A DNA stretch of 64,000 nt from Clostridia bacterium (GCA_017536635.1 JAFXHA010000070.1:5826-69825); one strand, 5' to 3'; shown: positions 32,139 to 41,016, numbered from the stretch's first letter. The notes: generated by a model from the letters alone, not told the origin. Numbers and translations are program-made.

Positions 32139-32167
32139 TTGACATTTTTTTTTTTTTTTGTTAAAAT
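32139..32167 (+). promoter_or_regulatory. Promoter TTGACA-17-TAAAAT whose spacer is a T15 homopolymer
   Basis: ttgaca at 32139-32144, t(15) at 32145-32159, then g t, then taaaat at 32162-32167. It lies 100 nt upstream of the TetR start. Confidence 0.65.
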
Positions 32168-32266: not shown

Positions 32267-32875
32267 ATGCAGCGCGAACAAGAAATTCGAGAAATCCTTA
32301 TAAACAACACCATACATCTTATCGCTGAAGGCGGGTTTGAAAAGGCAACCACTCACGCTATCGCGTTTAGCGGAGTACAACCGTCAACTTTCAAAATGAA
32401 CGAAGTATATATTTATCGTTTTTTTGGTGGCAAAGAAAAGCTGTATGCTGCGGCATTTGCAAAATTGGACACCGAGATCCATTTGGCTTTATGTGGCTAT
32501 ACCGATTTTCGTCCGTATCCCGAGCAAGATGTCAAATCGCAATTATACGAGGCTTTTTTGAAGACGTGGGGCTACATATTAACTAATGAAGCTTACTGCC
32601 GATGCTACGCTCGGTATTATTATTCGGTGTATTTCAAGGACGAGTCATTCCAAACTCACAACCGTCTCTTTGATGGAATTGTTGAAAGGTTTGCCCCTCT
32701 CTTCAAGGAAGGTACAGACGTAAAATTTATTATGCACGGTGTATTTACCACCATGATTGATTATGCCGTTTGGGTGCATAACGGAGATTTTAAAAACACA
32801 GCAAACACTACCGAGCATGTTTTTAACGTTACTTACGGAATGATGGCAACGTTTTTAAAAGATGCAAAAATATAA
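32267..32875 (+). CDS. TetR/AcrR family transcriptional regulator
   Basis: 202 aa with an N-terminal HTH pattern (IREILINNTIHLIAEGGFEKATTHAIAFSGV...IYRFFGGKEKLY). RBS gaaggag. Confidence 0.7.
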   Translation: MQREQEIREILINNTIHLIAEGGFEKATTHAIAFSGVQPSTFKMNEVYIYRFFGGKEKLYAAAFAKLDTEIHLALCGYTDFRPYPEQDVKSQLYEAFLKTWGYILTNEAYCRCYARYYYSVYFKDESFQTHNRLFDGIVERFAPLFKEGTDVKFIMHGVFTTMIDYAVWVHNGDFKNTANTTEHVFNVTYGMMATFLKDAKI

Positions 32876-33103: not shown

Positions 33104-34774
33104 ATGAAAATGAAAAACGCAAAACGAATATTGGCAGTATTTTTGACGCTGCTTATGATACTGCCGTCCGCGGCACTTGTAGGATGCAGCAAGCGCTATT
33201 TGAGCAATGAAGATATGCCTACGGCTAACTCCCAGAGCAACAATGCTTTTGATGCCGAGTATGTAACTCCGGTTGAAGTCGAGGAAGACGAAATTACCTC
33301 GGACGCTGAAAAAGAGGAAGCCGAAAGCGCAAAGGAAACCGTTGCGGCTGAAAATAACAATCAGTCGAACCTTTCGGATGCGTTGGCAGGAGGTGTTGCG
33401 GCTGACCCCGATCCTACTATCAGCTTGTCTGAGCTTAGCCAGTATAAAATCATATATTACAATTCCGCTTACGCAAAGCTTTGTGCCGAGAAGGTGCAGA
33501 CCGCTATCAAGGATGCTACGGGTATTGAGCTTGCATTAGGAGTTGATGCCGAGACGGCCGTATCAACCAAAGAGATCCTCGTCGGTAAGACTAACAGAGA
33601 CGAGAGTATTGCCGTAAGATCGGACTATTCCCGTCATAACGTTTACTACGATATCAAGGTCGTCGGAACAAAGCTGGTCATTATGGCAGAGGGCTACAAA
33701 ACTCTTGAATACGTGACCAAAGAGTTTGAGCAGTATATGGCAAAATCCCAGCCCTTTGTTGGATCTGTTATCTCGGGAGACATCTCTGCAGCTATCGATA
33801 TTGTCGGAACGAGTATGTTTAACCGCGCAAGCGGGACCAGCCTTCGCGTGTTCCACTGGAACGTTGGCGCTCCGCTTCTGGCGCTTACTCCGGGAATACT
33901 TAACGTAACCGATATTCCGAGTAATACGCACCGCGGAGAAGTCGTCGCTGACATAATTCTTCAGCTTGATCCCGATATTATAACCACGAACGAGATATAT
34001 TACGGCCATGCATCAGGTAAGTTCTATGATGCGTTTATTACTGAGATCTCCGAGTTTTATAACATTCTCGACAATGATTATTATGCTTCGGCATCGTCTT
34101 CGGTATGTTCTTCTTCTTCCGGATATGAAACGGGATATCCCACAAAATATCCTAATCCTGTCGTAGGCGCGTATAAGAGCGGTGAAATATCGATTCCCGA
34201 AAACATACTTTATAAAAAGAGTCTTGGACTTACCGTTACCTATTCCGGTTGGAGATATCTTGATGAGGATACGGGAACTGTAACCACCAATAACCCTTCC
34301 GGTGCAGTATATTTCCACGGATATCACACGGCAGTATTTAAGACCTCGGCAGGCAAGAGCTTTATTATCTCTGTCGGCCATTACGGCTCGGCAAAAACGG
34401 ACAACAAATTTGCCGCTGATCACTATACCGCTATTTCTTATGCGGCAAACAAGGCGGGCGTTACGCTTTCTTCCACACCCACGATAGTTACGGGAGATAT
34501 GTTTACCTGGAATGCAACGAATTGTAACGCAGGTTATAATTATTGGAGCTCTACGAAGGGATTTAACGATTCCCAGCTCAAAGCCAAAACAAACGCCAAC
34601 GGCAATACGACTCACGGCACCTTCCATACGGCGGGCGTCAGAAAGCCCGGCGTTAGCGAAGACTTTGTATGGTATAAGAATTTTACGTCAGCTCTTTGCT
34701 TTAAAGTTTTGGTTTCTATGGAGATCGACGATTGCAGCGACCATTATCCCGTTATGTCGGATCTTAAGTTTTAA
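33104..34774 (+). CDS. Secreted lipoprotein with C-terminal endonuclease/exonuclease/phosphatase (EEP) domain
   Basis: 556 aa with lipobox ALVGCSK and an acidic linker. EEP landmarks are LRVFHWNVG, IITTNEIY and a terminal DCSDHYPVMSDLKF. RBS aaaggaga. Confidence 0.7.
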   Translation: MKMKNAKRILAVFLTLLMILPSAALVGCSKRYLSNEDMPTANSQSNNAFDAEYVTPVEVEEDEITSDAEKEEAESAKETVAAENNNQSNLSDALAGGVAADPDPTISLSELSQYKIIYYNSAYAKLCAEKVQTAIKDATGIELALGVDAETAVSTKEILVGKTNRDESIAVRSDYSRHNVYYDIKVVGTKLVIMAEGYKTLEYVTKEFEQYMAKSQPFVGSVISGDISAAIDIVGTSMFNRASGTSLRVFHWNVGAPLLALTPGILNVTDIPSNTHRGEVVADIILQLDPDIITTNEIYYGHASGKFYDAFITEISEFYNILDNDYYASASSSVCSSSSGYETGYPTKYPNPVVGAYKSGEISIPENILYKKSLGLTVTYSGWRYLDEDTGTVTTNNPSGAVYFHGYHTAVFKTSAGKSFIISVGHYGSAKTDNKFAADHYTAISYAANKAGVTLSSTPTIVTGDMFTWNATNCNAGYNYWSSTKGFNDSQLKAKTNANGNTTHGTFHTAGVRKPGVSEDFVWYKNFTSALCFKVLVSMEIDDCSDHYPVMSDLKF

Positions 34775-34846
34775 CCTTAGTTGGCTATTATATTGGATCA
34801 AAGTAATTATGACGGCTACACGAGCCAAATTGAAAGGAGAGCTTTT

Positions 34847-37800
34847 ATGAAAATGAAAGCTTTAAAAAGAATACTGTCAATGCTTATGACGGTGTTGATG
34901 CTTGCGGGAACGTTTTCGATGATGTTTACTCACGTCGAAGCAGCCGATACGCAGGTCACTTCACCTAAAACATATAGTAGCGCCGCAAACGGTGATAAGC
35001 TTCTGGACGTTGACTTTACTCAACATTTTACGGCAGTTGACGACACCTCTACCGCTTTTACAACTAACGGTACAAAGTATAATTCAAGCGGAACTGCGGT
35101 CAGTACCGCTACAAATGCTTGGAGAAAGAGCCTTGTTGCTTCTCCTTCGGTAGCTACTTCCAACGAGCTTAAGATAGAGTATGCTGACACTACTACCGAT
35201 GCGACAGACCACAGATACATCGGCTACATTCCCGCATACGATCTTGATAACAAAACCGTAACTATGGAATTTGAGTATTTCCGTTCAAGCGGTATAAAGT
35301 CCAAATTCTACTTTGGTAAGGGTTCTTTTATATATGGCACGGACACAGATGATATCGTAAGTGGTGGAACAGATGCCGATATGCCCAACCTTGGTCTCGA
35401 GGTCAAAGCCGGTACTGCCGGATACCGACTTATGAGACAGAGTGCCGCAATAACGGCAGGCGTAACTACGGCAAAGTCCGGCATCGTTACCTCTAACGGC
35501 GAGCAGAGTACAACGTTTAAGGTCATACTTAAGGGCGGTACCAAGGTTACCAAGACCTTGTATGAGGGAAAAGAATGTCAAACAGCCAACGTTGAAAGAT
35601 GGACCGGATCGATCATTCCCGTATCCTACGCGATAGTTGAGATTACTTCAAGCGGCAGCGTTATAAACGTTGTCAGTGGTACTTTCTATCAGCCCTCGGG
35701 TATCGGCATAGTATTCGGTATAGGTGAGTACGATGCATTGGCATCGGGCGCGTATTACGGTGTCAGAAATCTTGCTATTTACAAGGGATGTACTACCTGC
35801 GTGGATGCGGATAAGGATCATTCGTGTGATTTCTGCTCCAAAGCGGTGGGAACTCACCTTGAACCCGCAAATTCGCACACCTGTGCGTATTGCGGCAAGG
35901 CGGCAGGCACCTGCTTTGATGCCGATCCCGTAGATCACAAGTGTGATAAGTGCGGAGCGGCATACGGTACTCACACTATTGCTACCGGCAAGCACGTCTG
36001 CGCACATTGTGGAAAGACACATTACGTTGATTGGACATCTACACATACGACAGATGACACTGCCAATATTTTTTCGGCTACTACAGATACAATAACATGT
36101 AATAGCAAAGCTAATGACGATATTTATTACAGAGTGGATTCTTTAGCGAGCTATACTATTCCGGGTAACGTGTATGAAGTCGATTACTGGATAGAGCAGA
36201 CGAGCTTTAGTTACCGTATCGGTTTCCAGCCTGTAAGCGCTCCCAGCGTAACGGGTAGCGGAACTACAGTACGAATAGGTTGGACGACGTGTGTCGTTGG
36301 GAAAAATCCTACCCCGTCTAATAATGATTATATGTGCCTGTTAGAAAACGGCTCTTTGAAAAATACATCACAAGCTGTAGAGGCACCTCGTGATATTGAC
36401 ACGAGTAATAATAATCGTCAGCATTTTAAAATAAAGGTTGACGGTATCAACAACAACATGACGCTTTATGTCAAGTATAATGGGGAATTTGTTGAGGCTG
36501 ATAGTGTTGCCGTGGACTTCTCAAATAGTACGGCTAAGTATTTAAGACCCACTTTCTTCATATATGATGCTATTCCTTCGGGAGAGAAGGTAACGATCGG
36601 CGGAGTTACAGTAACGAAGCTTTGCGTTGATACTAACAGCGACCATATTTGCGATTATGACGGATGCGGCGGAAAGGTCGGCGAATGCTCTGATTCGGAC
36701 ACCGATAGCGATCATATTTGCGATCTTGGCTGCGGAAGCGTTGCATCCGATTGCTATGACGGTTCTGTAATCGATCACAAGTGTGAGCTCTGCGGCGCCA
36801 AGATTCGCTCGCTTTGCGACGACGGTTCTACCGTTGACCACAAGTGTGACGTGTGCGGAACGAGAATGATCTCCGAATGTGTTGACAATAAGAAGGCAAA
36901 CGGCAGCGCAGGCAAGGATCACCTTTGTGATGTTTGCGGCGTTGCGATCGGATCTCTTCTTGACCTTACCGGAGTTAGCACTATCTCGGGCTATGCTTCG
37001 CAGGCAGGCACCCTCGTTGACAGCGGCCTCGGATATATCAAGATTTACAATAAGACTATCGCAAACGGCGATATGTACGGTAAGGATACCGGCAAGCTCA
37101 TTAAAAATCATAAATATGAGATAACTTATACCATTAACAAGGGAGTAGCTAATCAATCCCGAATAACGATGAACTTCCTTTACGGCTCGTATCTGAGAAG
37201 TGACGGCGTTACGAGAGCGGGACAGCTCGGTTGGGTTATTGGAACCGACGGCAGGATATCGAAAGCCTCGGGTTACGCTATCAATGAAGAATCAAACGGT
37301 AACTACGATTGGAAGATCGTTGACCGTGATATAGATACGTCAAGCGATAACGAGCAGCAGTTCAAGGTAGTTATCGACGGCTTTGGATGTCAGCTCTTGC
37401 TCTACGTTATGAAGAATGGTGAATGGGTAGAGTGTGAGGACCTTTCGATTCCGTTTACTATTGCGGACAATGCTACGTTGATTCCTGGATTCGGAACTTA
37501 CGATGCCGTTACCGGAGACAATTATATCAGGATGAGTGACGTAACTCTCCACGAGCTCTGCGGCTACAACGATAGCCATATCTGTACCGTGTGCGGAGCG
37601 AAGGTGAGCTCGTACGTTGATTTCAGAACCGAAAGAGATGATTGGGCATACGAGAACTGGAGCACAGAGATTGTAGAAAGAGAGAGCGGCTCCATTAAGG
37701 TATCCAATAAGGATACAGCCGGCGGCGGTTTTTACGGTATAAAGACCAATTATGAAGTACCCGGAAACGTATATGAGATAACCTATACGGTAAAGATTCC

Positions 37801-39277
37801 GAGCATGACCTCAACCGGCGCTCGCGCGAGAATGTCATTCGTCAACGGAACCTTCCATCTCGCTAACAGTGGTGATGCTAAGGGAGAGATCGGTTGGATA
37901 CTTTACCGATCGAGCGATAAGAGCGGCGCGGGTTTGAATTATATAACTCCTACCGCGACAAATAACATAAAGCATAATGACGCCTTTGAGGCAATCAGAG
38001 ATATAGACACTGCTAACGATAACGAGCAAAAGTTCAAGGTTATCGTCGACGGTATCAATTACACAATGACACTTTATGTCGTTCGAAACGGAGATTATTT
38101 TTGGGTTGCAACTCAGAGCTTCAGCATCAATGGCGCTGATACAAAGCTCAGAGTTCTTACGGGCTCTTATGATGCCATAACGGGCGATAACTATATTGAG
38201 CTTAGCGATGTGCTTATCACTCGCGGATGCTCTGTAACAAAGGGTGATACAACGCATAAGTGTTCTATTTGCGGAAAAACGTGTGGAACACATAGCACAG
38301 GACACTCCTGTCTGATATGTATGAAGGCAACCTCTTGCTCGGATGGTGACAGCGATCACCTTTGCGACACCTGCGGACTTCGTCTCAGCAATTGTGCGGC
38401 GGCATCGGGTAAGCATACGTGTAGTACGTGTGGCGCGATTCTGTCTATGTGTGACGACACTAATCTGGACCATAAGTGCGACAGATGTTCCGTTGTGCTT
38501 CATCCTTGTTACGATACCAAGGGCGACGGAGACCATAAGTGCGACTGGTGTAATAAGACGGAGCTGGATACGTATGCATGCGCGGATAATGACAAGGATC
38601 ACCGTTGTGATGACTGTTATAAGACCGGATTCGGAACTCACGAAGATGGCACGCCGGTTGACGGCAAGTGTGAATACTGCGGTAAATTCGCAGACCATAC
38701 CTGCGTAGATGAACCGGATGACGGCGACCACGAATGTGATTACGAAATTTGTGTTGGGATCGAAAACGCTTGCGTAGATTCCAATAAGGACCACGTATGT
38801 GATAACGACAGCGCTTGTGAGGTATACAGCTCGGGCGAAAACGCGCACGAGGATAACAATAGCGACTATAAGTGTGATTACTGTGGCAAGTGGACCGATC
38901 CATTTATTTCAGTCGACGTGGTATGGACGGAGATGTCTTTTACCTTTGAAGAAACCGATTGGAATGTTGCAACGCACACCTACGGCAACCGCAGCTGGAC
39001 GGTCGCCGAGAACGGCGGTACGTTGACGGTTACCAATAACAGCAACGTCCACGTGTTAGCAAGCTTTTCATATCTCGCCAACGCGGGCTTCGAGAGCATA
39101 GGCGCGGAGTTCCATATTGAGGAAGAATCCGTTGAAGCACAAAATATACCGATCAATGAAACTATTACTGTAACGGTTCATCCTACGGGTGTGCCTAACG
39201 AACATTTTGGATCTGCCGCAATTGGCACGATGACCATAACGATCACTAAAAATGGGGAGGTTGTTAACGATGAGTAA
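34847..39277 (+). CDS. Giant secreted Cys/His-knuckle repeat protein (1476 aa), unknown family
   Basis: Start moved to the ATG at 34847 (RBS aaaggaga at 34833-34840); the track start is a TTG. The signal peptide is MKMKALKRILSMLMTVLMLAGTFSMMFTHVEA|AD. It has about 21 C-x(4-12)-H-x-C-x(2-4)-C motifs in 4 blocks, three repeated domains of about 200 aa and a distinct C-terminal domain. I recognise no LPXTG, SLH or other anchor. Confidence 0.85.
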   Translation: MKMKALKRILSMLMTVLMLAGTFSMMFTHVEAADTQVTSPKTYSSAANGDKLLDVDFTQHFTAVDDTSTAFTTNGTKYNSSGTAVSTATNAWRKSLVASPSVATSNELKIEYADTTTDATDHRYIGYIPAYDLDNKTVTMEFEYFRSSGIKSKFYFGKGSFIYGTDTDDIVSGGTDADMPNLGLEVKAGTAGYRLMRQSAAITAGVTTAKSGIVTSNGEQSTTFKVILKGGTKVTKTLYEGKECQTANVERWTGSIIPVSYAIVEITSSGSVINVVSGTFYQPSGIGIVFGIGEYDALASGAYYGVRNLAIYKGCTTCVDADKDHSCDFCSKAVGTHLEPANSHTCAYCGKAAGTCFDADPVDHKCDKCGAAYGTHTIATGKHVCAHCGKTHYVDWTSTHTTDDTANIFSATTDTITCNSKANDDIYYRVDSLASYTIPGNVYEVDYWIEQTSFSYRIGFQPVSAPSVTGSGTTVRIGWTTCVVGKNPTPSNNDYMCLLENGSLKNTSQAVEAPRDIDTSNNNRQHFKIKVDGINNNMTLYVKYNGEFVEADSVAVDFSNSTAKYLRPTFFIYDAIPSGEKVTIGGVTVTKLCVDTNSDHICDYDGCGGKVGECSDSDTDSDHICDLGCGSVASDCYDGSVIDHKCELCGAKIRSLCDDGSTVDHKCDVCGTRMISECVDNKKANGSAGKDHLCDVCGVAIGSLLDLTGVSTISGYASQAGTLVDSGLGYIKIYNKTIANGDMYGKDTGKLIKNHKYEITYTINKGVANQSRITMNFLYGSYLRSDGVTRAGQLGWVIGTDGRISKASGYAINEESNGNYDWKIVDRDIDTSSDNEQQFKVVIDGFGCQLLLYVMKNGEWVECEDLSIPFTIADNATLIPGFGTYDAVTGDNYIRMSDVTLHELCGYNDSHICTVCGAKVSSYVDFRTERDDWAYENWSTEIVERESGSIKVSNKDTAGGGFYGIKTNYEVPGNVYEITYTVKIPSMTSTGARARMSFVNGTFHLANSGDAKGEIGWILYRSSDKSGAGLNYITPTATNNIKHNDAFEAIRDIDTANDNEQKFKVIVDGINYTMTLYVVRNGDYFWVATQSFSINGADTKLRVLTGSYDAITGDNYIELSDVLITRGCSVTKGDTTHKCSICGKTCGTHSTGHSCLICMKATSCSDGDSDHLCDTCGLRLSNCAAASGKHTCSTCGAILSMCDDTNLDHKCDRCSVVLHPCYDTKGDGDHKCDWCNKTELDTYACADNDKDHRCDDCYKTGFGTHEDGTPVDGKCEYCGKFADHTCVDEPDDGDHECDYEICVGIENACVDSNKDHVCDNDSACEVYSSGENAHEDNNSDYKCDYCGKWTDPFISVDVVWTEMSFTFEETDWNVATHTYGNRSWTVAENGGTLTVTNNSNVHVLASFSYLANAGFESIGAEFHIEEESVEAQNIPINETITVTVHPTGVPNEHFGSAAIGTMTITITKNGEVVNDE

Positions 39278-39788
39278 AAGAATATTGATAAGCATTATTG
39301 CGCTTTCCGTTGCTTTTGTAATATCGGTTTCGGTTTCTATATGGGCAATTTTCTTTAGAGATAGGGACGAGGTGCTACCTCCCGATTATTCGCCTCAGGA
39401 TACCGACGATAATCAGATCCCCATCCCCGACGATCCGGGAGGTGAAATTCAAACGCCTGAGGGGGGCAGCGCGGTGAATATTACCTATGCCGAAAACGTA
39501 ACGGTTGATTTGTCGGATGAGAAAGCAACTCTTTATTACGCCAATCCCTCGAGATCCGGTCAGAACGTAGCTATTGCTGTCGTGGTTGGCGAGGAGGTAG
39601 TATTAAGATCCGAGCTGATCACTCCGGGCAATATGGTTACAAGCCTTCCTCTTGCTGACAGAGCGAAGAAGAAACTTACCGTAGGCAGTTATAACGCCGA
39701 AATTATCGTTTATTGCTATCATCCCGAAACAGGTGAAAAGGCAATGGTCGATACCAAAGGTACGGTCATTTTGACCGTGTCTGAATAA
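39270..39788 (+). CDS. Single-pass membrane protein with extracytoplasmic beta-rich domain, unknown family
   Basis: Start set at the ATG at 39270 (RBS gggagg 9 nt upstream), which overlaps the giant gene's stop by 8 nt. It has TM helix ILISIIALSVAFVISVSVSIWAIFF, a Pro/Asp linker and a domain of about 100 aa. Confidence 0.65.
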   Translation: MSKRILISIIALSVAFVISVSVSIWAIFFRDRDEVLPPDYSPQDTDDNQIPIPDDPGGEIQTPEGGSAVNITYAENVTVDLSDEKATLYYANPSRSGQNVAIAVVVGEEVVLRSELITPGNMVTSLPLADRAKKKLTVGSYNAEIIVYCYHPETGEKAMVDTKGTVILTVSE

Positions 39789-39850
39789 CAAAATATATTG
39801 GCAGTTGCCATTATATAAAAAATTTTAAAAAAACAAAAAGGAGAGAAAAA

Positions 39851-40384
39851 ATGAAAAAAATTCTCGCAATCGCACTCACTCTTGCACTTGCTCTTTGCTT
39901 GGCAGTGCCCGCATTCGCAGACGAGGCTACCCTCTCAAGTAACACCACCCTTACTAAAAACATTACCGTTAGCGGTACATACGATGAAAATCCCACTGGA
40001 GAAGTCATTTCCGTTGACGTATCTTGGGGCACTATGAGCTTTACGTACACCCCTGCTAATGACGGTACTTGGAATCCTGCAACTCACGCCTATACCAACG
40101 TTCCGGATCCTGTCTGGACTCCGACCGGTAACACGATCACCGTAACCAACCACTCCAATACCGCTGTTGATGCTGAGCTGAGCTTCGCAAAGGCTGTTGA
40201 TACCATCACAGGTACTTTCACTGAGACTTCCGGTACTGCTAACAATGGCAAATTAGAGCTTGCTACCGCAGAAGATACGGAAGTTAATGAGGCTCCCACC
40301 GCTACCGCTACATTCACCGTTTCCGGTTCTATTGCCGAGAGCGACGACCTCGGTACCATTACCGTTACAATCGTTAACAAGTAA
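39851..40384 (+). CDS. Small secreted protein, paralog of the giant protein's C-terminal domain
   Basis: 177 aa with signal peptide MKKILAIALTLALALCLAVPAFA|DEA and RBS aaaggagag. The sequence ISVDVSWGTMSFTYT...ATHAYT...ITVTNHSN...GTITVTIVNK aligns to the giant's residues ISVDVVWTEMSFTFE...ATHTYG...LTVTNNSN...GTMTITITKNG. Confidence 0.75.
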   Translation: MKKILAIALTLALALCLAVPAFADEATLSSNTTLTKNITVSGTYDENPTGEVISVDVSWGTMSFTYTPANDGTWNPATHAYTNVPDPVWTPTGNTITVTNHSNTAVDAELSFAKAVDTITGTFTETSGTANNGKLELATAEDTEVNEAPTATATFTVSGSIAESDDLGTITVTIVNK

Positions 40385-40888
40385 TTGAAAAACACAAAAG
40401 AAAATAAGCTTGTGCTCGTGCTTTCTTTGGCGTGCGTTGTTGCGGTCATCGTTATGATCGTTTCGCTATGCATGCCAAAGGAGGCGGAGCAGAAGTCTTT
40501 TGTCCCCCCTCCGTTTGATGACGGGGCCGCGGTCGGAGAGCCCACCGTGCCCGATCATCTTGGGTACAGTATTCTTTACCAAGAAGGTATGTCCTTCAAA
40601 GTGGGAATTTGCGGAAAGATCAACGTTACGAACGGTTCTGCCGACGTTTATCTTACTAACGTTTCCGAAAATAACGTGTGGCTAAAGGTGAGGTTTTACG
40701 ACCGATCAGGCGACATTGTTGGAGAAAGCGGATTGATAAAGCCCGGCGAGTATTTGCAAAGCGTAACATTGAATGATATATCCGACACGGATAATATAAC
40801 CGTAAAAGTAATGTCTTACGAGCCTGATACGTACAAAAGTATGGGCGCAATTACACTGAACCCCAAAATATCAATTTTAACTACATAA
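40385..40888 (+). CDS. Single-pass membrane protein, distant paralog of 39270..39788
   Basis: 167 aa with a TTG start abutting the upstream TAA stop. It has TM helix LVLVLSLACVVAVIVMIVSL, a Pro-rich linker and then a domain sharing the L-Y-x-N-x-S...S-x-L-I-x-P-G...Y-x-P-(E/D)-T pattern with 39270..39788. Confidence 0.55.
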   Translation: MKNTKENKLVLVLSLACVVAVIVMIVSLCMPKEAEQKSFVPPPFDDGAAVGEPTVPDHLGYSILYQEGMSFKVGICGKINVTNGSADVYLTNVSENNVWLKVRFYDRSGDIVGESGLIKPGEYLQSVTLNDISDTDNITVKVMSYEPDTYKSMGAITLNPKISILTT

Positions 40889-40895
40889 GCAAACA

Positions 40896-40934
40896 AAATA
40901 AATATCCCCCCGTTTCATGGGGGGATATTTATTT
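40896..40934. terminator. Strong bidirectional terminator closing the surface locus
   Basis: aaataaatatcccccc-gtttcat-ggggggatatttattt, a 16-bp stem. Confidence 0.8.
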
Positions 40935-41016
40935 GCACGTCAAATAAATAGTAAGCCGTTGACATATTTTGAAATATATGATAAAATAAACTATCAAAGT
41001 CGTACGGAGGATAATT

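Follow-up and report, generated by a model that had tools for sequence, protein, structure and literature searches.

A beta-sandwich domain common to a giant and a small secreted protein in a conserved gene cassette of gut Clostridia

The giant secreted protein and the 177-aa secreted protein encoded in the analysed window (a 64,000-nt stretch of DNA from a Clostridia bacterium) have one beta-sandwich domain of about 125 residues in common. Both belong to a cassette of four to six genes that occurs across gut Clostridia and is undescribed; literature searches found no description of it. The shared domain is the common building block of the cassette. The best overall explanation, to which we give an even chance, is that the domain is a shared assembly module in which a strand of one molecule pairs in trans with the domain of another to form a polar chain.

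The last ~120 aa of the giant (38906–39274) are homologous to the body of the 177-aa protein (40004–40381). In BLASTP, the terminal 126 aa of the giant matched the 177-aa product with 37% identity over 125 aa (E 5e-12). A profile built from small-protein homologues only matched residues 1376–1490 of the giant (ORF starting at 34781; nt 38906–39250) with an E-value of 2e-11, and showed no further match in the six-frame translation of the window. Two domain copies were found in the 64 kb by this profile search, and they adjoin one another. The profile–profile comparison (hhalign) of 30 giant-type with 125 small-type copies, all taken from other genomes, gave a probability of 99.9% (E 5.5e-36, 124 columns). 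The preliminary description had claimed that the giant's C-terminal domain recurs in a stand-alone secreted protein. The BLASTP, profile and profile–profile matches bear this out and its coordinates are right; aligned by profile methods, as that description suggested, the two proteins are significantly similar. It had also called the domain duplicated. The homology is real, but the duplication is not recent: the 37% identity and the class-specific features kept across many genera mark the two copies, as judged by sequence, as old paralogous subfamilies of a large domain family rather than a recent local duplication. The span from 38900 to 40384 also includes the in-between gene TM-A (39270–39788).

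The features of the window are as follows.
32267–32875, plus strand: TetR-family regulator upstream of the cassette (weak TetR_N match, E 5e-4)
34847–39277, plus strand: giant secreted protein, class U, 1476 aa (ORF; ATG at 34847 as in the same-contig gene call)
38906–39274, plus strand: giant-type (U) domain copy (BLASTP, profile and hhalign U versus D matches given above)
39270–39788, plus strand: TM-A (sequence, gene call and orthologues at other loci)
39851–40384, plus strand: small secreted protein, class D, 177 aa (signal peptide, N-strand and shared domain)
39851–39919, plus strand: signal peptide of the small protein (MKKILAIALTLALALCLAVPAFA, followed by DE), read from the sequence
39959–39982, plus strand: N-strand motif NITVSGTY, candidate trans-pairing (donor) strand, 8 residues upstream of the domain
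40004–40381, plus strand: small-type (D) domain copy, an 11-strand beta-sandwich (homologue alignment and AlphaFold model)
40385–40888, plus strand: TM-B, N-terminal TM helix and extracellular domain, distant paralogue of TM-A
40896–40934, no strand assigned: bidirectional terminator-like hairpin of 16 pairs closing the operon (sequence scan)

The giant has a signal peptide, Cys-rich CxxC spacers (66 Cys and 18 CxxC in the whole protein) and three RDIDT-motif modules. It showed no significant Pfam or NCBIfam match and has no sorting signal, ending in KNGEVVNDE. The shared domain is its extreme C-terminus and lacks a preceding N-strand (the junction reads CGKWTDPF, then ISVDV); the U copy is directly preceded by a CxxCG knuckle (YKCDYCGKWTDPF, then ISVDVVW). 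Counterparts of the giant at other loci carry Flg_new, Calx-beta, GLUG and Filamin domains, and adhesin-type repeats are carried by the large proteins of the cassettes. The ATG of TM-A overlaps the stop codon of the giant. TM-A is predicted to comprise an N-terminal transmembrane helix, a Pro/Gly-rich linker and an extracellular beta-rich domain of ~100 aa. Its conserved motif is PEGGGAVSLTY…YDPxTGEKAMV, no Pfam family was assigned to it, and its orthologues were 49–51% identical in all four first-examined cassettes.

The small-protein gene is preceded by a strong AGGAG ribosome-binding site; its product is identical to protein IKL59_06955 of a MAG Clostridia bacterium and has 276 close homologues. 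Its signal peptide is of the Sec type and ends in AFA before DE; residues M1–K3 and A21-F22-A23 were nearly invariant in an alignment of 50 homologues. The protein has no sorting signal and no membrane anchor, ending in TITVTIVNK, and with its Sec signal peptide the term stand-alone secreted is therefore reasonable. The TTG start of TM-B abuts the small protein's stop codon. TM-B is related to TM-A (BLASTP E 1e-3; hhalign probability 98.9%, E 2.6e-17) and has the conserved motif PPPFD…VYFTN…GLIKPGEY…YEPETY. The closing hairpin is followed by a strong promoter-like site (40959–40987) for the next gene (PFK). A promoter scan placed another promoter-like site at 32139–32167, by the TetR-family gene, and a TetR_N gene is found at the same position in a related cassette (L010). 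The TetR-family gene is a possible regulator of the cassette. An EEP-like lipoprotein gene further upstream (33104–34774) was rejected as a cassette member, since copies of the same genome were the only other place where it turned up. A search of the whole 64 kb for sorting signals found none, and the window holds a minimal version of the cassette without the sortase substrate.

The conserved motifs of the domain family are WxxMxF(T)Y, WN, HxY and TVTNHSN. Residues W59, M62, F64, Y66, W74, H79, W89 and N100-H101-S102-N103 are invariant in the D copy. The invariant NHSN of the small-type copies is absent from giant-type copies, and the TVTNHSN of the small type reads TVTNNSN in the giant-type copy of the window. 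The invariant NHSN and His raised the idea of an isopeptide or ester cross-link, and the homologue alignment showed no invariant Lys, Gln or Thr partner for one. The profile search for the family returned 3,266 representative clusters (50% identity) at E ≤ 1e-3. The family was found here in Clostridia only, and all recovered loci are Clostridia. A search with the giant-type domain profile returned mostly fragments and small proteins, from which no passenger architectures were obtained, and a word-indexed homology search gave no match when the giant's C-terminal domain was the sole query.

Sequence searches of Pfam, NCBIfam and PDB gave no match for the domain, either as a single sequence or as a profile, and no meaningful match for TM-A, TM-B or the sortase substrate. 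AlphaFold modelled residues 50–177 of the small protein with pLDDT >90. Foldseek found no match to this fold at E < 1e-3; its matches were weak and generic, one list being headed by pilin domains and the other by PapD-like/MSP folds. The pilin domains of FimG, FimF, PapG, CsuE and Caf1 were among the top weak structural matches.

A census of 78 GTDB species-level loci covered Oscillospiraceae, Ruminococcaceae, Acutalibacteraceae, Lachnospiraceae and others. Cultured carriers are Ruthenibacterium lactatiformans, Catenibacillus scindens DSM 106146 and Ruminococcus sp. 210702-SL.1.03. One gene order was kept throughout: a large adhesin-like protein ending in the domain, TM-A, one to six secreted strand-plus-domain proteins, TM-B and often a sortase substrate. 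TM-A orthologues are present in 63 of the 78 loci and adjoin the domain genes there; TM-B orthologues were found in 42 of the 78, many of these loci being incomplete. At 28 loci, a large protein with a C-terminal copy lies just upstream of TM-A and small copies lie downstream. Of 34 complete related cassettes, 23 have the sortase substrate; about a third of complete cassettes lack it, the window included. Small-class proteins of other genomes carry passengers, namely ubiquitin-like domains, CBM26, a GDSL-like esterase region, LRR and beta-helix.

The N-strand motif differs sharply between the two classes. It was present in 110 of 125 copies downstream of TM-A versus 2 of 29 upstream (Fisher p 3e-17, with species treated as independent and relatedness uncorrected). 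V40 and G42 of the motif are nearly invariant in the homologue alignment. When N-terminal passengers (ubiquitin, CBM26, GDSL-like and others) are inserted, the motif stays beside the domain and not beside the signal peptide. In the AlphaFold monomer, the strand region was left unplaced, with a pLDDT of ~60 and no strand, versus >90 for the domain, as would be expected of a strand whose partner is a different molecule. In the natural fusion P0176 (2466 aa), a strand-less giant-type domain and a 37-aa linker are followed by the strand and a small-type domain. AlphaFold of its residues 1923–2133 (the giant-type domain and the next strand) gave a confident domain, and a beta-strand at a low pLDDT of 32–47.

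The same kind of strand is found right after the signal peptide in the sortase substrates, which end in xPxTGD, a TM segment and a basic tail. The best match of the strand profile fell within the first 30 mature residues in 19 of 23 sortase substrates. In the hhalign comparison of these proteins with the small proteins, the N-terminal ~29 columns aligned and nothing else did; the body of the sortase substrate showed no similarity to the shared domain. Among the small proteins, one in particular has the strand closest to that of the anchor, for example KDIGVYVKYVDN versus KDISVNAKYVDG. This anchor-like flavour of strand was found in 14 of 23 cassettes with the anchor versus 1 of 11 without it.

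In the explanation that we favour, at even odds, the shared domain of ~125 aa serves a conserved Clostridial cell-surface cassette as its common assembly module. The cassette has three classes of product. The first is a single large adhesin-like protein whose C-terminus consists of the domain without the strand, here the giant. The second is one to six secreted proteins with the strand motif and then the domain, often with extra passengers, here the 177-aa protein. The third is a sortase substrate with the strand and without the domain, in about two-thirds of complete cassettes. This pattern of domain only, strand plus domain, and strand only argues for strand–domain pairing between molecules, as tip, shaft and anchor, and the cassette parts look designed for head-to-tail protein linkage. 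Mechanistically, the likeliest account is donor-strand-like beta complementation, in which a strand contributed by one protein pairs with the domain of a second. The chain would then be polar, from a wall- or membrane-proximal strand donor through one or more small subunits to the giant as a distal, acceptor-only tip. TM-A and TM-B, as core parts, probably hold or anchor the subunits at the membrane after Sec export; since no sortase substrate is encoded in the window, they are the sole candidates for a cell anchor there. Some observations fit the chain less well. The fold matches are weak and generic. The lack of NHSN in giant-type copies is not predicted by a shared acceptor groove and could mean that the strand packs in cis, and the base of the chain is undefined in the cassettes without the sortase substrate, such as that of the window.

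We consider it possible, though somewhat doubtful, that the cassette encodes a WxL-like docking complex without polymerisation, in which the domain is bound by the cell wall or by the ectodomain of a dedicated receptor in the membrane. TM-A would receive the giant-type copy and TM-B the small-type copy, and the N-strand would act in cis as part of the fold. The giant would be displayed by non-covalent C-terminal attachment, with the small protein as an accessory subunit of the same complex. The translational coupling of the giant/TM-A and small/TM-B gene pairs agrees with this, the paralogy of TM-A and TM-B fits two receptor–ligand pairs, and the co-occurrence of NHSN and the strand in one class is compatible with a cis contact. 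The layout also equals that of WxL/Csc clusters, for which peptidoglycan binding and mutual association have been reported (PMC9772566). However, a docking complex leaves unexplained why the strand occurs without the domain in sortase substrates and why the anchor strand goes with one small protein in particular. Although strongly conserved, the strand was not placed in cis by AlphaFold, and no sequence match to WxL, DUF916 or DUF3324 was found.

A role of the small protein as competitor, cap or regulator, occupying the docking site of the giant's C-terminal domain and so limiting or timing the attachment of the giant, is quite improbable. The two proteins have the same fold and are co-transcribed, but the copies fall into separate, anciently diverged classes that differ in conserved surface motifs and N-terminal context. 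Simple competition for one docking site, as raised in the preliminary description, is made unlikely by the N-strand and the invariant NHSN, which occur in the small type and neither of which occurs in the giant type; such non-equivalent copies point to complementary partners rather than rivals. The passengers that the small class bears elsewhere (ubiquitin-like, CBM26, LRR, beta-helix) likewise suggest cargo-bearing subunits rather than inhibitors. A generic Ig-like spacer in a coincidental operon neighbourhood, with no functional link between giant and small protein, would suit the weak scores of broad Ig-like/PapD-like folds but is very improbable, as only two copies occur in 64 kb, side by side, and the census contradicts it with TM-A/TM-B synteny at class-specific positions in 63 of 78 loci of many genera.

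The domain is thus operon-linked and not a ubiquitous, free-floating Ig fold, given its neighbourhood with TM-A and the large/small layout of 28 loci. The preliminary description had proposed a non-covalent attachment or polymerisation module; the synteny and the layout shared with WxL clusters place this in the right class of ideas, but the copies are not equivalent.

Under the trans-pairing explanation, the cassette might go further and represent a new class of Gram-positive surface fibre, which we offer tentatively and rate as rather unlikely. Such a fibre would be Sec-exported and joined by non-covalent donor-strand complementation, with the giant adhesin as acceptor-only tip and a strand-only sortase substrate or TM-A/TM-B as base. 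It would be a modular cargo scaffold of gut Clostridia, with cargo that includes eukaryote-like ubiquitin domains. Oscillospiraceae, Ruminococcaceae and Lachnospiraceae are the dominant groups in the mammalian gut, yet little is known of their surface display of adhesins and enzymes. The cassette comprises five uncharacterised protein families with more than 3,000 sequence clusters, and its cargo includes starch-binding modules and ubiquitin-like domains. If strand–domain pairing is true, the cassette would be a missing Clostridial counterpart of WxL clusters or donor-strand pili, and a simple, testable rule would predict the proteins that belong together at the cell surface.

The cassette resembles chaperone–usher pili (type 1, P, Csu, Caf1), in which the tip adhesin ends in a C-terminal acceptor pilin domain without a donor strand and the shaft subunits have an N-terminal extension followed by a pilin domain. 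The same distribution was found here, the N-strand motif being present in 110 of 125 small-type copies and in just 2 of 29 giant-type copies. Chaperone–usher pili differ in being Gram-negative, in having a two-domain chaperone in the periplasm and an usher in the outer membrane, and have no sequence similarity to the cassette. Nothing of this kind was noticed in passing next to the cassettes, no Pfam match to a PapD-type chaperone or usher was found among the four cassette proteins of the window, and the outer membrane that an usher requires is lacking in a Gram-positive host.

TasA/TapA/SipW fibres, archaeal threads, bundling pili and Tafi have Sec- or Tat-exported beta-sandwich subunits, for which usher-free strand donation has been proposed or shown, as outlined in their reports. 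The Natrinema Tafi pilus was among the weak fold matches. The window proteins and 45 family members showed no match to Peptidase_M73/TasA (PF12389); faint M73 matches occurred only in unrelated neighbours of locus L001. Unlike TasA fibres, the cassette has no SipW-type peptidase in its operon, and its accessory genes (TM-A, TM-B, sortase substrate) differ. Type V pili of Bacteroidia are made from lipoprotein precursors whose strand is freed by an Arg/Lys protease, whereas the signal peptides of the cassette end in AFA and have no lipobox Cys where they are cleaved. The endospore appendages F-ENA, which are widespread in Clostridia and have N-terminal hook peptides, were considered and set aside on their outline description as head–neck subunits tethered by collagen-like proteins, which differ from the beta-sandwich proteins with signal peptides of the cassette.

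Like sortase pili, many related cassettes have a C-terminal xPxTGD sorting signal in their last gene, which makes sortase-mediated attachment of the assembly to peptidoglycan probable. Unlike sortase pili, the small protein and the giant lack a sorting signal, no sortase gene was noticed next to the cassettes, and the subunit linkage would be non-covalent. The Clostridial cohesin–dockerin cellulosomes also place one small module on many cargo types, which suggests modular display on one scaffold. The module here differs in being a single beta-sandwich of ~125 aa plus a strand, and no cohesin or dockerin match was found in the window proteins or 45 family members.

WxL clusters of Lactobacillales and Listeria comprise a small WxL protein, a large WxL protein, a DUF916–DUF3324 membrane protein and a small LPxTG protein (PMC9772566). 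The cassette shares with them a signal peptide-plus-domain protein of ~180 aa and a large protein with passengers and a shorter C-terminal domain copy (177 aa and 1476 aa in the window, and likewise in 28 related loci). It also shares a membrane-anchored protein, often a sortase substrate, and occurrence in gut commensal Firmicutes. In WxL models, too, an N-terminal strand is connected to the domain by a linker (PMC9772566). The WxL domain has two WxL motifs on adjacent strands; the shared domain has none and its conserved motifs differ, with no match to the WxL model (Pfam PF13731) at E ≤ 1 in the window proteins and none at E ≤ 10 among the listed families in 45 family members. TM-A, TM-B and eight orthologues did not match DUF916/DUF3324; these single-pass proteins may be functional analogues, and they differ in having ~170 aa, an N-terminal anchor and two paralogues. 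An LPxTG protein is frequent in WxL clusters and missing from the window; 23 of the 34 complete related cassettes have a sortase substrate. Bacilli account for 99% of the Firmicutes WxL sequences counted in the review (PMC9772566), and the loci recovered here are all from Clostridia.

The giant secreted protein, the single-pass membrane proteins TM-A and TM-B and the small protein form a tight operon on the plus strand:

34847-39277, plus strand: giant secreted protein of 1476 aa with a signal peptide, 66 Cys and 18 CxxC motifs
39270-39788, plus strand: TM-A, whose ATG overlaps the stop codon of the giant by 8 nt (39270-39277)
39851-40384, plus strand: small protein of 177 aa with a strong AGGAG ribosome-binding site
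40385-40888, plus strand: TM-B, with a TTG start directly after the TAA of the small protein (40382-40387)

TM-A is translationally coupled to the giant, and TM-B to the small protein. Automatic gene calls in public copies of TM-B begin at least 11 codons further downstream; the TTG start is favoured because the Lys-rich N-terminus is conserved among orthologues. A 16-pair hairpin (40896-40934) and the strong promoter-like site of the next gene (PFK) mark the end of the unit. Upstream lie genes for a TetR-like protein and an EEP-like lipoprotein. The lipoprotein (33104-34774, plus strand; 556 aa, lipobox LVGC) is immediately 5′ of the giant, showed a weak match to the endonuclease/exonuclease/phosphatase fold (E 1.6e-4) and is not conserved next to related cassettes. 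A 'Clostridia bacterium' MAG encodes a hypothetical protein with exactly the sequence of the small protein.

The preliminary description had proposed that the small protein repeats the C-terminal domain of the giant, and the alignments, including the profile comparison that it called for, confirmed this. The last 126 aa of the giant were 37% identical to the small protein across 125 aa (E 5e-12). A profile built from small-protein homologues only matched the giant at residues 1376-1490, counted from the ORF start at 34781 (E 2e-11), and had no other match in the six-frame translation of the window. Giant-type and small-type alignments from other genomes matched each other in hhalign with a probability of 99.9% (E 5.5e-36, 124 columns). 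The family is a large one: searching 1.84 billion representatives with a profile recovered 3,266 clusters at E ≤ 1e-3 and, at the stricter E ≤ 1e-10, 1,894.

The AlphaFold model, made with 50 homologues, showed residues 50-177 of the small protein as a beta-sandwich of 11 strands with pLDDT above 90. The 25 residues preceding the domain were unplaced (pLDDT ~60), despite a highly conserved motif with the consensus ITVNGTY. No sequence family in Pfam, NCBIfam or the PDB matched the domain, whether it was searched as a single sequence, as 45 individual members or as a profile, and Foldseek against the PDB gave no match with E below 1e-3. For the small protein, phage lambda gpJ led the Foldseek list, followed by many chaperone-usher pilin domains (FimG: probability 0.97, rmsd 3.4 Å, 103 columns). 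PapD-like, MSP and ASH folds were at the top for a giant-type copy. We take the modelled domain to be an Ig-like sandwich in the neighbourhood of pilins and PapD, and claim nothing beyond this.

The CxxC motifs of the giant sit in repeated D-x-D-K-D-H-x-C-D-x-C-G units (e.g., residues 315-385, 646-694 and 1139-1343). These Cys-rich units are probably metal-binding spacers and divide three modules of ~200 aa, each with RDIDT…Q.FK…DG; the spacer/module region matched no family. A CxxCG knuckle immediately before the C-terminal domain was also found in giants from several other genera (loci L031, L052, L054 and L057).

Related loci were taken from contigs with homologues and then from GTDB species representatives (78 loci), in which six-frame ORFs were compared with profiles of the domain, TM-A, TM-B and the last gene. 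All 78 loci were from Clostridia, with members in Oscillospiraceae, Acutalibacteraceae, Emergencia, Ruminococcaceae (Subdoligranulum, Gemmiger, Ruthenibacterium and Angelakisella) and Lachnospiraceae (Acetatifactor, Catenibacillus, Marvinbryantia and Mediterraneibacter). The preliminary description had considered that the domain might be a ubiquitous Ig-like fold without operon linkage. Instead, the gene order was strikingly constant: a large protein whose C-terminus is the domain, TM-A, one to six domain proteins, TM-B and a sortase substrate (the anchor). The proteins between TM-A and TM-B are small or medium-sized and carry the domain close to the N-terminus, and the last gene product is identified as a sortase substrate by its C-terminal xPxTGD, hydrophobic stretch and basic tail. 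TM-A was found in 63 of the 78 loci and TM-B in 42, with many contigs truncated. A minimal form without a sortase substrate accounts for 11 of the 34 complete cassettes, including that of the window. Four loci (L016, L021, L037 and L061) have an extra copy of TM-A or TM-B with further domain proteins in between, which suggests that a unit of domain proteins and membrane protein can duplicate as a block. Our literature search found no paper describing the cassette.

TM-A and TM-B are distant paralogues (hhalign probability 98.9%) and do not resemble the shared domain. Both have a short cytoplasmic N-terminus, a single TM helix, a linker rich in Pro and Gly and a beta-rich ectodomain of ~100 aa with conserved motifs, and each cassette has one of each at fixed positions. 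They may act as a membrane-bound chaperone or platform that tethers subunits just after export. Alternatively, in a rival model, they may themselves be anchors or receptors. No sortase substrate is encoded across the 64-kb window, so TM-A and TM-B are the sole encoded candidates for cell attachment in this organism.

The copies of the domain fall into two classes. A strand motif lies 5-20 residues before the domain in 110 of 125 copies downstream of TM-A versus 2 of 29 upstream (Fisher p 3e-17, with each species counted as independent). The upstream class forms the extreme C-terminus of its proteins (median ORF length 686 aa), gives lower scores with the small-type profile and does not have the NHSN that is invariant in the small class. 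In the window, the giant has YKCDYCGKWTDPF followed by ISVDVVW at the domain boundary and reads TVTNNSN; the small protein has TKNITVSGTYDENPTGEV followed by ISVDVSW and reads TVTNHSN. Some small-class proteins carry N-terminal passengers, namely a ubiquitin-like domain, CBM26, a GDSL-like region or 400 aa of repeats. The strand adjoins the domain and not the signal peptide in these proteins, and thus goes with the domain in function.

In the small class only, NHSN (N100-H101-S102-N103, window 40148-40159) and H79 are invariant and D56 is near-invariant. These residues might bind a metal, take part in catalysis or cross-linking, or contact the N-strand. In many small-class members, a eukaryote-like ubiquitin domain (PF00240/PF11976) lies between the signal peptide and the strand plus domain. 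Examples are the homologues P0030, P0054 and P0082 (255-256 aa) and the loci L010 (8001-8768 and 8862-10472) and L001 (6615-7973), and a single 90% cluster of such proteins holds 487 member sequences. Secreted ubiquitin-like proteins have been described in Bacteroides fragilis (PMC5705921); we found no description of them for gut Clostridia in the literature.

The same kind of strand occurs without the domain in the sortase substrates, directly after the signal peptide (e.g., DIGVYVKYVDN, HVDVYAKYVNN, TIDVFAKAVY and DVDVYAKTIY). For 19 of 23 distinct anchors, the small-protein strand profile had its best match within mature residues 1-30, and shuffled controls never reached the top scores. The hhalign comparison of anchors with small proteins aligned ~29 N-terminal columns and nothing else, and the remainder of the anchors did not resemble the domain, even in unfiltered comparisons. 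The anchor strand was closest to that of one particular small protein of ~185 aa in the same cassette (e.g., KDIGVYVKYVDN versus KDISVNAKYVDG). This strand flavour was present in 14 of 23 cassettes with an anchor versus 1 of 11 without (p 0.008).

If strand and domain pair between molecules, the three architectures (domain only, strand plus domain, strand only) are what a polar head-to-tail assembly would require. The giant, as acceptor only, would be the distal end; in its counterparts elsewhere there are Flg_new, Calx-beta, GLUG and Filamin repeats, which are typical of adhesins. The middle subunits would be bifunctional, and the proximal end would be a donor only, fixed to the wall. The homologue P0176 (2466 aa) carries a strand-less giant-type domain (1959-2082) and, after a linker of 37 aa, the strand FGIYGTY and a small-type domain (2136-2250); a further C-terminal region lies beyond. 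This natural fusion gives a Rosetta-stone-type hint that the two classes are adjacent. When its giant-type domain, linker and next strand were modelled, the domain was confident, and the strand (residues 202-207) had a pLDDT of only 32-47. The strand could also pair with the domain in cis, but this leaves the anchor strand and the strand-less giant domain unexplained. Trans pairing, which we infer from the three architectures in the sequences, leaves the absence of NHSN from the giant-type class unexplained. The domain is probably the assembly module that the proteins of a conserved surface cassette have in common. We consider the chances even for the full statement that includes trans pairing, and it is doubtful that the cassette proteins form a true fibre. 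The earlier interpretation is supported in part: the view of an operon-linked assembly or attachment module is retained, and the small protein resembles a complementary partner or a subunit rather than the competitor once suggested.

The cassette is built from uncharacterised families. Its module logic is like that of chaperone-usher pili, with a FimH-like tip logic, and of the donor-strand fibres of Gram-positives and archaea (TasA, threads and Tafi); no family membership follows from either likeness. Downstream of the related cassette in L001 (9520-15678), several unannotated secreted proteins have faint Peptidase_M73 (TasA/camelysin) matches and could be a second fibre system beside the cassette. 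The nearest match in organisation is the WxL/Csc clusters of Lactobacillales and Listeria, whose layout is closely alike. These encode a small WxL protein of ~180 aa (signal peptide and domain), a large WxL protein that bears passengers and has a shorter domain at its C-terminus, a membrane protein of the DUF916-DUF3324 type and, in many cases, an LPxTG protein; peptidoglycan binding and mutual association have been reported (PMC9772566). However, the defining Pfam models have no match in the cassette, the motifs differ and the taxa barely overlap, so we regard the cassette as resembling WxL clusters in organisation without belonging to them.
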